Of a stretch of DNA of 64,000 nucleotides, positions 1,163 through 5,811 are shown piece by piece (within the stretch, counting starts at the first letter, position 1; every line of letters starts with the position of its first letter). The notes below the pieces were generated by a model. That model saw only the letters and a program-made list of their open reading frames with translations, was not told where the DNA came from and did no database searches. The stretch lies in assembly GCF_013315695.1 (NCBI RefSeq), contig NZ_CP054353.1; one strand, 5' to 3'. Both the position numbers and the translations under genes were made by a program. The stretch comes from Escherichia coli. GTDB taxonomy: Bacteria > Pseudomonadota > Gammaproteobacteria > Enterobacterales > Enterobacteriaceae.

Positions 1163-1516
1163 ATGTCATTTCTGTTACCCATCCAACTCTTCAAAATTCT
1201 TGCCGATGAAACCCGTTTGGGCATCGTTTTACTGCTCAGCGAGCTGGGAGAGTTATGCGTCTGCGATCTCTGCACTGCCCTCGATCAGTCGCAGCCCAAG
1301 ATCTCCCGCCATCTGGCATTACTGCGTGAAAGTGGGCTATTGCTGGACCGCAAGCAAGGAAAGTGGGTTCATTACCGTTTATCGCCGCATATTCCAGCAT
1401 GGGCGGCGAAAATTATTGAGCAGGCCTGGCGATGCGAACAGGAAAAGGTTCAGGTGATTGTCCGTAACCTCGCCAGACAAAATTGTTCCGCAGACAGTAA
1501 GAATATTTGTAGTTAA
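1163..1516 (+). CDS. arsR: Arsenical resistance operon repressor ArsR (ArsR/SmtB family)
   Basis: 117-aa ORF with winged-HTH and the As(III)-binding motif ELCVCDLC; followed by arsB and arsC. Confidence 0.9.
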   Translation: MSFLLPIQLFKILADETRLGIVLLLSELGELCVCDLCTALDQSQPKISRHLALLRESGLLLDRKQGKWVHYRLSPHIPAWAAKIIEQAWRCEQEKVQVIVRNLARQNCSADSKNICS

Positions 1517-1570
1517 AAAATTTATCTAAACACATATGAATATTCGAATGTGTTTTATCAAGGAGGCATG

Positions 1571-2860
1571 ATGTTACTGGCGGGCGCTATCTTTGTCCTG
1601 ACCATCGTATTGGTTATCTGGCAGCCGAAAGGTTTAGGCATCGGCTGGAGTGCGACACTGGGCGCCGTACTGGCGTTAGTTACTGGCGTGGTCCATCCGG
1701 GCGATATTCCGGTGGTGTGGAATATCGTCTGGAACGCGACGGCGGCGTTTATAGCCGTCATTATCATCAGCTTGCTGCTGGATGAGTCCGGCTTTTTTGA
1801 ATGGGCGGCGCTGCACGTCTCACGCTGGGGCAATGGGCGCGGTCGCTTGCTGTTTACCTGGATTGTCCTGCTCGGTGCTGCCGTTGCAGCTCTGTTTGCC
1901 AATGATGGCGCGGCGCTTATTTTGACACCGATTGTCATCGCCATGCTGCTGGCTTTAGGGTTCAACAAAGGCACTACGCTGGCGTTTGTTATGGCGGCCG
2001 GATTCATTGCCGATACCGCCAGCCTGCCGCTTATTGTCTCTAACCTGGTGAATATCGTTTCGGCAGATTTCTTTAGCCTCGACTTTCGCGAATACGCCTC
2101 GGTGATGGTGCCGGTGGATATCGCTGCAATACTGGCTACCCTGGTGATGTTGCATCTCTATTTCCGCAAAGATATTCCGCAGAACTACGACATGGCGCTG
2201 CTAAAATCTCCCGCAGAAGCGGTTAAAGATCCTGCCACCTTCAAAACTGGCGGGGTTGTTTTACTGCTTCTGCTGGTGGGATTTTTCGTCCTGGAACCGC
2301 TCGGCATTCCGGTAAGCGCCATTGCGGCAGTGGGCGCGCTGATATTATTTGTCGTCGCTAAACGCGGTCATGCGATTAATACGGGTAAGGTGCTGCGCGG
2401 TGCGCCCTGGCAGATTGTCATCTTCTCGCTCGGCATGTATCTGGTGGTTTATGGCCTGCGCAATGCCGGATTAACGGAATATCTTTCTGGCGTACTCAAC
2501 GTGCTGGCGGATAACGGCCTGTGGGCGGCGACGCTCGGCACCGGATTCCTCACCGCCTTCCTCTCTTCTATTATGAACAATATGCCGACGGTACTGGTTG
2601 GCGCGTTGTCCATTGATGGCAGCACGGCATCTGGTGTCATCAAAGAAGCGATGGTTTATGCCAACGTAATTGGCTGCGATTTGGGGCCGAAAATTACACC
2701 GATTGGTAGCCTGGCAACGCTGCTCTGGCTGCACGTACTTTCGCAGAAGAATATGACTATCAGCTGGGGATATTACTTCCGTACAGGGATTATCATGACC
2801 CTGCCGGTGCTGTTTGTGACGCTCGCCGCGCTGGCGCTTCGTCTCTCTTTCACTTTGTAA
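1571..2860 (+). CDS. arsB: Arsenite/antimonite efflux pump ArsB
   Basis: ORF 1550..2860 is a polytopic membrane protein; start moved to ATG 1571 ([10 protein letters not shown]..., 429 aa), 4 nt after RBS aggagg at 1561-1566. Confidence 0.9.
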
Positions 2861-2872
2861 TGAGATACTGAT

Positions 2873-3298
2873 ATGAGCAACATTACTATTTATCACAACC
2901 CGGCCTGCGGCACGTCGCGTAATACGCTGGAGATGATTCGCAACAGCGGTACAGAACCGACCATTATCTATTATCTGGAAACTCCACCCACACGCGATGA
3001 ACTGATCAAGCTCATTGCCGATATGGGGATTTCCGTTCGTGCGCTGTTGCGTAAAAACGTTGAGCCGTATGAGGAACTGGGCCTTGCAGAAGATAAATTT
3101 ACTGACGATCGGTTAATCGACTTTATGCTGCAATATCCCATCCTGATTAACCGCCCGATTGTGGTGACACCGCTGGGAACTCGCCTGTGCCGCCCTTCAG
3201 AAGTGGTGCTGGAAATTCTGCCAGATGCGCAACAACGCGCGTTCACCAAGGAAGATGGCGAGAAAGTGGTTGATGAGGCGGGTAAACGCCTGAAATAG
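2873..3298 (+). CDS. arsC: Arsenate reductase ArsC (glutaredoxin-coupled)
   Basis: 141-aa ORF MSNITIYHNPACGTSRNTLEMI... with the catalytic Cys in the HNPACGTSR motif; last gene of arsRBC. Confidence 0.9.
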   Translation: MSNITIYHNPACGTSRNTLEMIRNSGTEPTIIYYLETPPTRDELIKLIADMGISVRALLRKNVEPYEELGLAEDKFTDDRLIDFMLQYPILINRPIVVTPLGTRLCRPSEVVLEILPDAQQRAFTKEDGEKVVDEAGKRLK

Positions 3299-3299
3299 C

Positions 3300-3321
3300 T
3301 AAAGGGGGATATGCCCCCTTA
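3300..3321. terminator. Hairpin agggggatatgccccctt between convergent arsC and the ArsR-family regulator
   Basis: 7-bp GC-rich stem (aggggg.../...ccccct) immediately after the arsC stop, followed by tatttgtt. Confidence 0.5.
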
Positions 3322-3639
3322 TTTGTTCTTCGTGGCTCCTTCGCCATCTGTTTTGCTGTTTACGCAGCACTCCTCACGTAAAAATTCAATTATCGCTTCC
3401 AGCATTGCGTATTGCGAAACACACATCAGCGTCCGACTCTCACGGTTTTGTTTGACCAACCCTACCGATACCAGTGCTGAAATATGGTGACTGAGTGTAG
3501 AGCCGGGTATCCCAAGCTGCTTTTGCAACTCACCGACCGGCAAACCTTGTTCCCCCGCTTTGACCAGATGCTTAAATATGAACAAACGGGTCGGGTGACC
3601 TAGCTCTTTCAGCGCTTTAGCAACTTCTTCCAACTGCAT
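3319..3639 (-). CDS. ArsR/SmtB-family transcriptional regulator with C-terminal vicinal cysteines (candidate organoarsenical or metal sensor)
   Basis: ORF 3319..3702; preferred start ATG at 3639 (MQLEEVAKALKELGHPTRLFIFKHL..., 106 aa) preceded by SD gagggga; HTH LPVGELQKQLGIPGSTLSHHISALVSVGLV; C-terminal EECC pair; divergent from the ArsP-like permease. Confidence 0.7.
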   Translation of the reverse strand: MQLEEVAKALKELGHPTRLFIFKHLVKAGEQGLPVGELQKQLGIPGSTLSHHISALVSVGLVKQNRESRTLMCVSQYAMLEAIIEFLREECCVNSKTDGEGATKNK

Positions 3640-3663
3640 ATGACTCCCCTCTGTCTGGTTGAT

Positions 3664-3720
3664 ATTTCGATAATACCAGAAATATCTTGATTTGAATTTC
3701 ATTTCGATTATTCTGGAAAT
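3664..3720. promoter_or_regulatory. Two 20-bp dyad-symmetric sites (ATTTC-N10-GAAAT) in the divergent promoter region; candidate operator
   Basis: atttcgataataccagaaat (3664-3683) and atttcgattattctggaaat (3701-3720) are 16/20 identical, each with 5-bp inverted arms; they sit between the regulator start (3639) and the permease start (3746). Confidence 0.4.
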
Positions 3721-3745
3721 ATAGATTTATTCAATGAGGTTACGT

Positions 3746-4747
3746 ATGAGTAGTTGGCTTGCGATGCTGCAAGATGCCGCAGAGATGTTTGTGTTTCTCG
3801 CCGTCGAGCTTTCTTTGCTGTTTATAGTGATTAGTGCCGGTGTCAGCCTGATAAGACAAAAGGTGCCAGACCATAAAATCCAGCAGATGATGGGGGCCAG
3901 AAAAGGGAGAGGCTATCTCCTGGCTGCTCTGTTGGGAGCCGTTACCCCGTTCTGTAGTTGCTCGACAATACCCATGTTACGTGGATTGTTATCAGCGAAA
4001 GCCGGGTTTGGTCCGACCCTCACTTTTTTATTTGTTTCCCCATTACTTAATCCCATTATCGTCGGGTTAATGTGGGTGACCTTTGGCTGGAAAGTTACCT
4101 TGTTGTACGAGATTATCGCCGCCGGCGTCTCCGTACTTGCCAGTATTATCCTGGATTCCCTGGGATTTGAACGTCATATCATTGCCAGTAAAAGCTCATC
4201 AGCAAATTGTTGTGCTCCAGCCAAAACTTCGCCGGGGACGACATATACGCCAATAAAAGTGAGTTGCTGTAGTCCAGCGGCTAAAGCCATTGAGAAACCT
4301 GTAGTAAACTGTTGCAGTACCAAAGCTGTGGTAAGTATTAATCCCATAAAACTAGCCACCAAAGATGCGTTGCAACAGTTTAAAGATGTACTGCCATATC
4401 TTTTGTTAGGGGTATTAATAGGCTCTTTTATTTATGGCTTTATTCCCTCAGAGTGGATTGCCGCTCATGCAGGGGCAGATAATCCCTTCGCCATCCCATT
4501 GAGCGCCGTTGTTGGTATTCCGCTATATATCCGGGCAGAGGCAGTTATCCCTCTGGCATCTGTTTTGATGACAAAAGGAATGGGTCTGGGAGCATTAATG
4601 GCATTAATCATCGGCAGTGCCGGCGCAAGCCTGACGGAAGTGATATTACTTAAATCAATGTTCAGAATACCGATGATAGTTGCATTCCTGACGGTTATCT
4701 TAGGTATGGCTATCTTGATGGGCTATTTGACTCAAATGCTATTTTAA
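3746..4747 (+). CDS. arsP: ArsP-like permease (putative organoarsenical efflux permease) with a Cys-rich cytoplasmic loop
   Basis: Polytopic membrane ORF (3734..4747; start preferred at ATG 3746 after SD tgagg). Contains TPFCSCSTIP (nt 3944-3973), which matches the TPFcSCSxxP motif I recall for ArsP methylarsenite permeases; also has three CC pairs (NCCAP, SCCSP, NCCST). Confidence 0.6.
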   Translation: MSSWLAMLQDAAEMFVFLAVELSLLFIVISAGVSLIRQKVPDHKIQQMMGARKGRGYLLAALLGAVTPFCSCSTIPMLRGLLSAKAGFGPTLTFLFVSPLLNPIIVGLMWVTFGWKVTLLYEIIAAGVSVLASIILDSLGFERHIIASKSSSANCCAPAKTSPGTTYTPIKVSCCSPAAKAIEKPVVNCCSTKAVVSINPIKLATKDALQQFKDVLPYLLLGVLIGSFIYGFIPSEWIAAHAGADNPFAIPLSAVVGIPLYIRAEAVIPLASVLMTKGMGLGALMALIIGSAGASLTEVILLKSMFRIPMIVAFLTVILGMAILMGYLTQMLF

Positions 4748-5113
4748 ATAGATGCCAGCAGTAAACTATAAGGAGTATTGTGAGTGCCTTATCCTTCTGA
4801 GTAGAAAATCATAGATAGGATAATCCTTAAAAATAACAAATAACTTAACTAATGCTTTGAGAATGATGACGGATCCGTCAGTAAGTCATCAATCGACAAT
4901 CACCACGCAATCATGCTTCTCTGACATTTTATCGGAGAAGCAATGTCTCTTTGTCTCAGTATCATCCCCCTTTTAAAGGGTAGATTTCAGTCGCCAATAC
5001 AACACATTTTTAAATACACTTTAACCTGGTTCATTATTACACATCTAAAACATCACAAAAATATCACTTCACACACTATCGGAGAACATCATAACTTCGG
5101 TAATGACTCCAAC

Positions 5114-5617
5114 TTATTGATAGTGTTTTATGTTCAGATAATGCCCGATGACTTTGTCATGCAGCTCCACCGATTTTGAGAACGACAGCGACTTCCGTCC
5201 CAGCCGTGCCAGGTGCTGCCTCAGATTCAGGTTATGCCGCTCAATTCGCTGCGTATATCGCTTGCTGATTACGTGCAGCTTTCCCTTCAGGCGGGATTCA
5301 TACAGCGGCCAGCCATCCGTCATCCATATCACCACGTCAAAGGGTGACAGCAGGCTCATAAGACGCCCCAGCGTCGCCATAGTGCGTTCACCGAATACGT
5401 GCGCAACAACCGTCTTCCGGAGCCTGTCATACGCGTAAAACAGCCAGCGCTGGCGCGATTTAGCCCCGACATAGCCCCACTGTTCGTCCATTTCCGCGCA
5501 GACGATGACGTCACTGCCCGGCTGTATGCGCGAGGTTACCGACTGCGGCCTGAGTTTTTTAAGTGACGTAAAATCGTGTTGAGGCCAACGCCCATAATGC
5601 GGGCTGTTGCCCGGCAT
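5114..5617 (-). CDS. insB: IS1 InsB (expressed as InsAB' transposase by -1 frameshift)
   Basis: 167-aa [28 protein letters not shown]... overlapping the insA 3' end in the -1 frame. Confidence 0.9.
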
Positions 5618-5811
5618 CCAACGCCATTCATGGCCATATCAATGATTTTCTGGTGCGTACCGGGTTGAGAAGCGGTGTAAGTGAACTGCAGTTGCCATGT
5701 TTTACGGCAGTGAGAGCAGAGATAGCGCTGATGTCCGGCGGTGCTTTTGCCGTTACGCACCACCCCGTCAGTAGCTGAACAGGAGGGACAGCTGATAGAA
5801 ACAGAAGCCAC
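5536..5811 (-). CDS. insA: IS1 InsA (transposition inhibitor / N-terminal part of InsAB' transposase)
   Basis: 91-aa [40 protein letters not shown]... with zinc-finger Cys motifs; the A6C frameshift motif ttaaaaaactc is present at its 3' end. Confidence 0.95.

Follow-up and report, generated by a model that had tools for sequence, protein, structure and literature searches.

Vicinal cysteine pairs in the central loop of an ArsP-family permease of Escherichia coli, a candidate capture arm for trivalent arsenicals

The stretch of Escherichia coli DNA analysed here (64,000 nucleotides of contig NZ_CP054353.1, hereafter the window) carries an open reading frame (ORF) of 337 amino acids (aa) for an ArsP-family (PF03773) permease on the plus strand at 3734..4747, and a divergent gene for an ArsR/SmtB-family repressor of 106 aa on the minus strand at 3319..3639. 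The best overall explanation for this gene pair (3319-4747), offered tentatively and given slightly less than an even chance, is that it would form a self-contained sensor-exporter module for thiol-reactive trivalent arsenicals. The loop that joins the two halves of the permease contains three vicinal cysteine (CC) pairs; these pairs, the CC of the sensor and the C-S-C of the translocation site are all of the two-thiolate kind that an R-As(III) species needs, which argues for the loop as a capture arm. The explanation is based in part on the family membership of the permease, the conservation and enrichment of the CC pairs, the predicted disorder of the loop, the alignment of the regulator site and the genomic context. 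Taken as a whole, capture arm and sensor-exporter together, it falls a little short of being probable.

The initial annotation of the window had reported three CC pairs in a hydrophilic stretch of the permease, and translation confirmed them as C159-C160 (codons TGT TGT, 4208..4213), C178-C179 (codons TGC TGT, 4265..4270) and C193-C194 (codons TGT TGC, 4310..4315), all on the plus strand. Residues are numbered from the start of the 337-aa ORF; RefSeq/PGAP places the start at M5 (nucleotide 3746), giving a protein of 333 aa. The pairs account for six of the eight cysteines in the permease, the other two being C74 and C76 within the motif TPFCSCS (T71-S77, plus strand, 3944..3964). The peptide quoted for the stretch, SSSANCC...CCSTK, corresponds to residues 154-197 and nucleotides 4193-4324; the interval reported for it, 4190-4324, is therefore correct at its end, whereas its start adds K153. 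Residues 150-207 consist of proline, alanine, serine and threonine to 48% and include seven lysines and one acidic residue. The pairs are non-random with respect to this composition: shuffling of the whole protein produced at least three CC pairs in 19 of 200,000 trials (~1e-4), and shuffling of the loop alone did so in 74 of 200,000.

The central loop (residues 150-203, plus strand, 4181..4342) is hypervariable in both sequence and length, and was compared across the family in two sets: 95 full-length PF03773 proteins, one per 50%-identity cluster (P0121-P0270), and 80 loci from a scan with one genome per species. Every family member has such a loop, with a length of 25-142 aa, and the stretch is therefore not an insert as had been suggested. 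Nor did the family alignment bear out a lineage-specific origin of the CC pairs, at least one of which is present in the loops of 31 of the 95 representatives and of 29 of the 80 species loci. At least two pairs were found in 14 representatives and at least three in 7 (P0121 has seven), and at least three were found in 9 of the species loci. The hosts of CC-containing loops include Burkholderiaceae, Syntrophorhabdaceae, Sphaerochaeta, Chloroflexi, Lentisphaeria, Aquificaceae, Helicobacter, Arcobacter and haloarchaea, and such loops recur in independent ars-operon contexts in Campylobacter, Helicobacter, haloarchaea, Deltaproteobacteria and Synergistales. Across the representatives, cysteine makes up 4.5% of loop residues vs. 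1.2% of core residues, and 60 CC pairs (61 if overlapping pairs are counted) were observed against 12.2 +/- 3.0 in composition-preserving shuffles (2000 runs, maximum 24), a five-fold enrichment. The same 95 loops contain CxC 25 times, CxxxC 8 times and CxxC not once, suggesting selection against redox-active or Zn/Cu-type spacing. Some representatives carry a His-rich loop instead (P0260).

Among the close relatives of the E. coli permease (E. fergusonii, Salmonella, Proteus and Enterobacter plasmids, Aeromonas and Citrobacter), all loops contain 2-4 CC pairs, often preceded by CxxxC. In the Enterobacterales and Aeromonas proteins, identity to the query is 82-96% over the membrane core and just 8-50% over the loop, with the CC columns still aligned; these columns can be aligned even in P0121 (core identity 65%) and P0123 (54%). 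The CC pairs are the sole conserved feature of the loop. In the column of the first pair relatives have either CC or S-C..C, the column of the second is kept from Escherichia to Aeromonas as well as in P0121 and P0123, and the third pair also occupies a conserved column. Near-perfect tandem repeats of CC-containing units were found in a metagenome-assembled genome (MAG) of Lentisphaeria, with SSCAVTPVETSCCSSKPIET three times, and in Endozoicomonas, with SCCDSKPAPK three times (L032 5926-7098, L015 3639-4730 and L016 5911-7020). Judged from the repeats themselves, these loops are products of recent expansion through duplication. Near-identical plasmid alleles of 345 aa and 377 aa differ through deletion of CC units, and deletions of 18 aa were seen. 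On the evidence of these comparisons, the CC string is, in evolutionary terms, an accessory that is selected yet dispensable. The initial annotation had named wide presence together with mutational dispensability as one outcome that would count against a functional domain; the comparisons go part of the way there, since the CC loop is indeed widespread and is dispensable in the evolutionary sense, as many ars-operon homologues have no loop cysteines.

The permease consists of a single ArsP_1 domain (PF03773, E 6.5e-52), with residues 13-334 matching positions 3-293 of the 294-position model. The TPFCSCS columns are at least 90% conserved in an alignment of 92 sequences, and T71-P-F-C74-S-C76-S77 conforms to the tPF-C(S/T)C pattern that Yang et al. 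2015 (PMC4435449), who surveyed the transporters of ars operons, give for ArsP 'cluster 2'. A tblastn search linked the protein to the permease of a Campylobacter jejuni arsP-arsR-arsC-acr3 locus (L077), with 32% identity over query residues 2-332 (E 8e-48); the neighbours of that gene encode ArsR, a low-molecular-weight ArsC and Acr3. Numbered from MEKLVF, the motif cysteines of the L077 permease are residues 65 and 67, in agreement with what we take to be the published numbering of C. jejuni ArsP (CjArsP). CjArsP is reportedly an efflux permease for trivalent organoarsenicals, and to our knowledge ArsP is the sole efflux system specific for these compounds, with a structure that has never been solved. 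By domain, motif and similarity, the E. coli permease is an ordinary member of this known organoarsenic-efflux family. Within the 80 species loci, ArsC, ArsB or Acr3 was encoded within 4 kb of the permease in 22, and an ArsR-family or ars gene was nearby in 58.

The helix pattern of the permease repeats on both sides of residues 143-203, giving two halves with a variable hydrophilic loop between them. The ArsP family has been described in the same terms, as two homologous halves and a variable hydrophilic loop, with eight transmembrane segments (TMs) (PMC7176098). An AlphaFold2 model was built on the 92-sequence alignment; its membrane part is predicted with confidence, with a mean predicted local distance difference test score (pLDDT) of 88 and a predicted template modelling score (pTM) of 0.84. 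In this model each half comprises a long helix, two 'broken' helical elements and a last helix. The first half is interrupted at TPFCSCS (between H59-70 and H75-87) and at SPLLNP, the second at GIPLY.R.E and at S.(T/P)E. Residues 150-203 have no secondary structure in the model (pLDDT 46-65), which supports the earlier description of a hydrophilic linker separating membrane segments of an ArsP_1 permease. No PDB match for the permease was obtained with phmmer, and Foldseek comparisons with elevator transporters of the DASS/INDY, Pho90 and ArsB types were weak (E > 0.3 at best). The permease differs from these transporters in being far smaller, with ~280 structured residues, in having no separate scaffold helices and in having no detectable sequence similarity to them.

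The side of the membrane on which the loop lies was assessed from the charge of the loops in the 92 homologues. In the topology derived from the model, the mean number of lysine and arginine residues on one face is 4.5 in L1-2, 9.2 in the central loop and 2.6 in L7-8, and on the opposite face it is 1.0 in the acidic N-terminus and 0.6 in L5-6. Loops rich in these residues on one face constitute a positive-inside pattern, which would place the central loop in the cytoplasm. Under the older eight-helix model (PMC7176098) the loop is still predicted inside in 89% of sequences. The cytoplasmic topology proposed in the initial annotation is thus favoured both by the charge statistics and by the fold-derived topology, and the predicted location of the central loop is most likely the cytoplasm.

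The repressor gene (3319..3639 from the PGAP start; its longest possible ORF extends to 3702) encodes a protein with cysteines at 73, 91 and 92. Among solved structures its best match is AfArsR, the As(III) sensor of Acidithiobacillus ferrooxidans (6j05, E 3e-10), and the ungapped phmmer alignment of the two places C91-C92 (EECC, minus strand, 3364..3369) on the As(III) ligands C95-C96. No equivalent of the third ligand, AfArsR C102, is present, since the sequence that follows the regulator CC, VNSKTDGEGATKNK, contains no cysteine. SpArsR of Shewanella putrefaciens 200 uses a pair of cysteines to bind methylarsenite, MAs(III), and is unresponsive to arsenite; the lack of a third cysteine is what gives it this MAs(III) selectivity (PMC13236881, PMC11868830). 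In its cysteine pattern the E. coli regulator matches the SpArsR-type two-cysteine signature. Some orthologues of the E. coli regulator gain a third cysteine (CCxxxxC); these orthologues would probably regain an As(III)-type site, with selectivity varying within the clade.

The C-x17-(E/Q)CC pattern is kept in the plasmid copies of the regulator, in the partner of a 47%-identical permease and in 24 of the 80 species loci. In these 24 loci the regulators are 48-65% identical to that of E. coli and are usually divergent from the permease, 100-200 bp upstream. The S. xiamenensis orthologue, for example, is 59% identical, has C-x17-CC and is divergent from a permease with three CC pairs, and the cysteine pattern C..CC is also present in orthologues from Shewanella and Vibrio. 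Two operator-like imperfect palindromes of 22 nt, ATTTCGATAATACCAGAAATAT (3664..3685) and ATTTCGATTATTCTGGAAATAT (3701..3722), lie in the divergent promoter region between the two E. coli genes and overlap promoter-like hexamers. The palindrome core, ATTTCGAT.AT.C..GAAAT, is found again ahead of the orthologous permease gene on plasmids and in Shewanella and Vibrio; because it recurs across genera, the two palindromes are likely the operator of the regulator. A persulfide sensor of the BigR/SqrR type was also considered for the repressor and rejected as a lead, with a score of 38 bits vs. the NF040642 cutoff of 155 and no alpha-2 cysteine.

A Burkholderiaceae MAG (L007 6112-10159) encodes a homologue with three CC pairs together with a molybdopterin oxidoreductase (846 aa), a 4Fe-4S subunit and a TorD-like chaperone, followed by an AfArsR-type regulator with CC..C; these genes may encode a respiratory arsenate reductase. 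A MAG with the label Alistipes senegalensis (L012 4532-7122) has an AfArsR-type regulator with CC, a third cysteine and another CC at its C-terminus, and after it a tandem pair of PF03773 permeases, of which the first lacks loop CC pairs and the second has three CC pairs and CGC motifs. The 54% identity to the E. coli protein makes the species label of this MAG look doubtful. In Syntrophorhabdaceae, the homologue P0139 with four CC pairs is preceded by a regulator of the PadR family containing SGCCVP (L006 4494-4925) and not by an ArsR.

In the mechanism proposed for the module, the permease would be built of two inverted repeats in an elevator-type fold, and the conserved C74-S-C76 dithiol would sit close to the middle of the membrane, at the first helix break. 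The inter-repeat linker of ~55 residues would be a disordered, Lys-rich arm on the cytoplasmic face, with the three CC pairs as its sole conserved elements. A single pair would suffice as a two-thiolate site for an R-As(III) species, and an S3 site for As(III) or Sb(III) could be formed by two pairs jointly. Through the chelate effect, the arm would take the arsenical from glutathione, protein thiols or other monothiol carriers and, being tethered beside the cytoplasmic entrance, would hand it to the CSC site by thiol exchange for efflux, acting as an ArsD-like chaperone fused in cis. The number of pairs (0-7) would have been tuned in evolution by tandem duplication and deletion, with the arm aiding capture and not being required for transport. 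The cytoplasmic location of the arm, the identity of the substrate and the capture and hand-off are the parts of this explanation that we infer.

A role of the loop cysteines as thiol ligands on a cytoplasmic loop is plausible, and conservation, context and precedent strengthen it. The earlier proposal that the pairs are soft-metal(loid) ligands fits their being the only conserved feature of the loop, with ligation itself standing as a prediction. The most far-reaching reading takes the poly-CC loop as an in-cis metallochaperone, a disordered chain of two-thiolate sites, their number set by tandem duplication, that would strip glutathione-bound trivalent organoarsenicals for the CSC site of a minimal elevator-type exporter; this reading is doubtful.

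Several points weigh against the capture-arm explanation, some of them concerning the loop and others, given below with the soft-metal alternative, concerning the substrate. Homologues of the Bacillales and Geobacter type that lie inside ars operons have loops of 25-32 residues with no cysteine, which means that the arm cannot be essential. Additionally, eleven orthologues from the E. coli-like clade, with the same type of regulator, have a loop of 35 residues with just GCxxxCG. The transporter is low in abundance, so that capture would have to be kinetic and the arm would be no significant buffer. The cytoplasmic placement is drawn from a predicted model and charge statistics, whereas published descriptions assume eight TMs. 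Lastly, no description or test of ArsP loop cysteines was found in the reachable literature.

The main rival is that the loop is a regulatory sensor, in which arsenical binding at the CC pairs would reshape the loop and thereby gate or switch on the elevator movement, or affect the protein's stability or its interaction with partners. Eukaryotic exporters provide precedents: the loop of yeast ScAcr3 binds methylated As(III) and controls Fps1, and the N-tail of Marchantia MpACR3 binds As(III) and controls trafficking and activity. The position of the loop is also suitable, as a segment joining both repeats of the putative elevator-type fold could restrain domain movement. However, the number and spacing of the pairs vary freely, from none to seven, through tandem duplications and through 18-aa deletions among near-identical plasmid alleles; the loop has no predicted structure or docking surface; and the adjoining repressor already provides transcriptional control. 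An antenna that raises affinity accounts better than a defined allosteric switch for the variable number of pairs and their evolutionary dispensability; a sensor or gate is regarded as unlikely.

Less likely again is that the substrate of the module is not an arsenical but a soft metal cation such as Cu(I), Zn/Cd or Hg(II), and that the CC loop would bind metal in the cytoplasm, as the counterpart of the His-rich loops in CDF and ZIP transporters or of the cysteine pairs in MerT and MerF. In MerT, MerF and MerA, Hg(II) is bound by vicinal CC pairs. The two best NCBIfam matches of the permease, both sub-threshold, are the SO_0444 Cu/Zn efflux family (NF033936) and SaoE (NF040736), so the substrate could be such a cation; both share the permease's Pfam family and the CSC motif. 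Against an exclusively arsenical role, an SO_0444-family gene in Nitratiruptor is induced by Cd and Cu, and the genes near the CC-rich homologue P0139 encode a CDF transporter and a Metal_resist protein. The His-rich loops of representatives such as P0260 and the plasmid-borne copies of the pair, which travel without other ars genes, point the same way. These matches are nevertheless far under the curated cutoffs, at 108.9 bits vs. 300 for SO_0444 and 84.9 bits vs. 325 for SaoE, so that the permease is a member of neither, and no SAO genes lie beside the permease, its neighbours being arsRBC and IS1. The nearest solved relative of the regulator is an As(III) sensor with the liganding CC aligned, the chromosomal pair abuts arsRBC, homologues from several phyla are found in ars operons, and CxxC, the usual Cu(I)/Zn motif, is missing from all 95 loops. 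On balance a soft-metal substrate is improbable.

It is very unlikely that the loop cysteines have no ligand role, either as part of a neutral low-complexity linker kept by repeat expansion or as a periplasmic or redox (disulfide) feature. Such a reading would suit a loop that is hypervariable, repeat-prone and evolutionarily dispensable, in a protein with a topology known from prediction. It conflicts with CC columns that remain aligned though their flanks diverge to 8-25% identity, with the five-fold excess of CC over composition-matched shuffles in 95 independent clusters and its recurrence in unrelated phyla, and with the charge bias that puts the loop inside, where thiols stay reduced; vicinal disulfides, moreover, are strained and rare. 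Binding of an Fe-S cluster or a zinc-ribbon fold by the loop was rejected, given a disordered loop and the zero count of CxxC.

The surroundings of the pair in the window are those of a known chromosomal locus. Window DNA from 3300 to 4800 is 100% identical to the Escherichia coli chromosome NZ_OZ547117, in which the gene order is gor, dinQ, arsR, arsB, arsC, an opposite-strand ArsR/SmtB regulator, 'permease', IS1, slp, dctR and chuSA. The chromosomal arsR-arsB-arsC operon (plus strand, 1163..3298, with arsC at 2873-3298) lies directly upstream of the pair, and an IS1 transposase gene (minus strand, 5114..5811) lies 366 bp past the permease stop. A terminator-like hairpin at 4914-4942 lies between the permease, which is intact, and IS1. 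The ORFs listed at 4083-4256 (plus strand) and 4174-4362 (minus strand) were rejected as genes, as both fall within a well-supported coding sequence and are artefacts that arise when ORFs are listed mechanically.

Of 5426 complete E. coli genomes, 2217 contain the pair at 80% coverage or more. When PLSDB was searched at the protein level, 1001 plasmids matched, 646 of them at 60% identity or more and 639 of the 1001 conjugative, with hosts mainly in Escherichia, Salmonella, Citrobacter and Klebsiella; among the matches listed, several plasmids are from poultry or pigs. The plasmid-borne copies form an isolated pair, with no other ars genes, flanked by IS26, IS1 or Tn3 elements (regulator and permease at L002 6582-8047, L003 6572-8134 and L004 5563-7023, for example). 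The plasmid pairs are annotated merely as 'permease' and are not flagged in the resistance-gene columns, and one study of a Salmonella plasmid names such a pair arsR/arsP (PMC9484752).

If the in-cis chaperone reading is true, the arsR-arsP pair would be an unrecognised high-affinity determinant of resistance to organoarsenicals of the roxarsone type, carried by hundreds of conjugative plasmids of E. coli and Salmonella and by ~40% of E. coli chromosomes. The expandable string of dithiols would then let a low-abundance secondary transporter compete with millimolar glutathione for its substrate, in parallel to the thiol relays of ArsD/ArsA and Mer but within one polypeptide. Should the module confer resistance to roxarsone or MAs(III), it would constitute an overlooked determinant that could be co-selected with antibiotic resistance. 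Both an expandable vicinal-cysteine string as a family-wide accessory and a candidate DASS/ArsB-like fold for the family appear to be undescribed in the searched literature.

Among known systems, CjArsP (TC 2.A.119) shares with the E. coli module PF03773, the TPFCSCS dithiol, a hydrophilic loop between the halves and an adjoining gene for an ArsR-family regulator. At the homologous place the CjArsP loop has one CC pair (SSCCSNN; ..EQKSSCCSNNTFQNSYCQK..) and one more cysteine, whereas the E. coli loop has three CC pairs. The initial annotation had considered a CC-rich loop to be undescribed for characterised ArsP proteins; no describing paper was found in the searched literature, and the feature itself is nonetheless present in CjArsP as this single pair. 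The E. coli gene also differs from CjArsP in its setting, a stand-alone pair with a regulator of the AfArsR/SpArsR type outside any arsP-arsR-arsC-acr3 operon.

Outside the family, a Cys-rich cytoplasmic loop of yeast ScAcr3 binds methylated As(III) and a Cys-rich N-tail of Marchantia MpACR3 binds As(III). These eukaryotic Acr3 segments, which bind As(III) or MAs(III), resemble the E. coli loop as Cys-rich, cytosolic appendages of an arsenic exporter that vary between lineages; they differ in belonging to an unrelated family (BART/Acr3), in having single spaced cysteines rather than CC pairs and in serving regulation or trafficking. The metallochaperone ArsD has three vicinal cysteine pairs (C12-13, C112-113 and C119-120) and passes As(III) and Sb(III) to an efflux pump. 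The likeness to ArsD lies in vicinal cysteine pairs serving metalloid hand-off and is a functional analogy only, with no sequence relationship: ArsD is a protein in its own right, with a thioredoxin-like fold, and works with the ArsA ATPase, whereas in the E. coli module the corresponding element would be a disordered loop of the permease itself.

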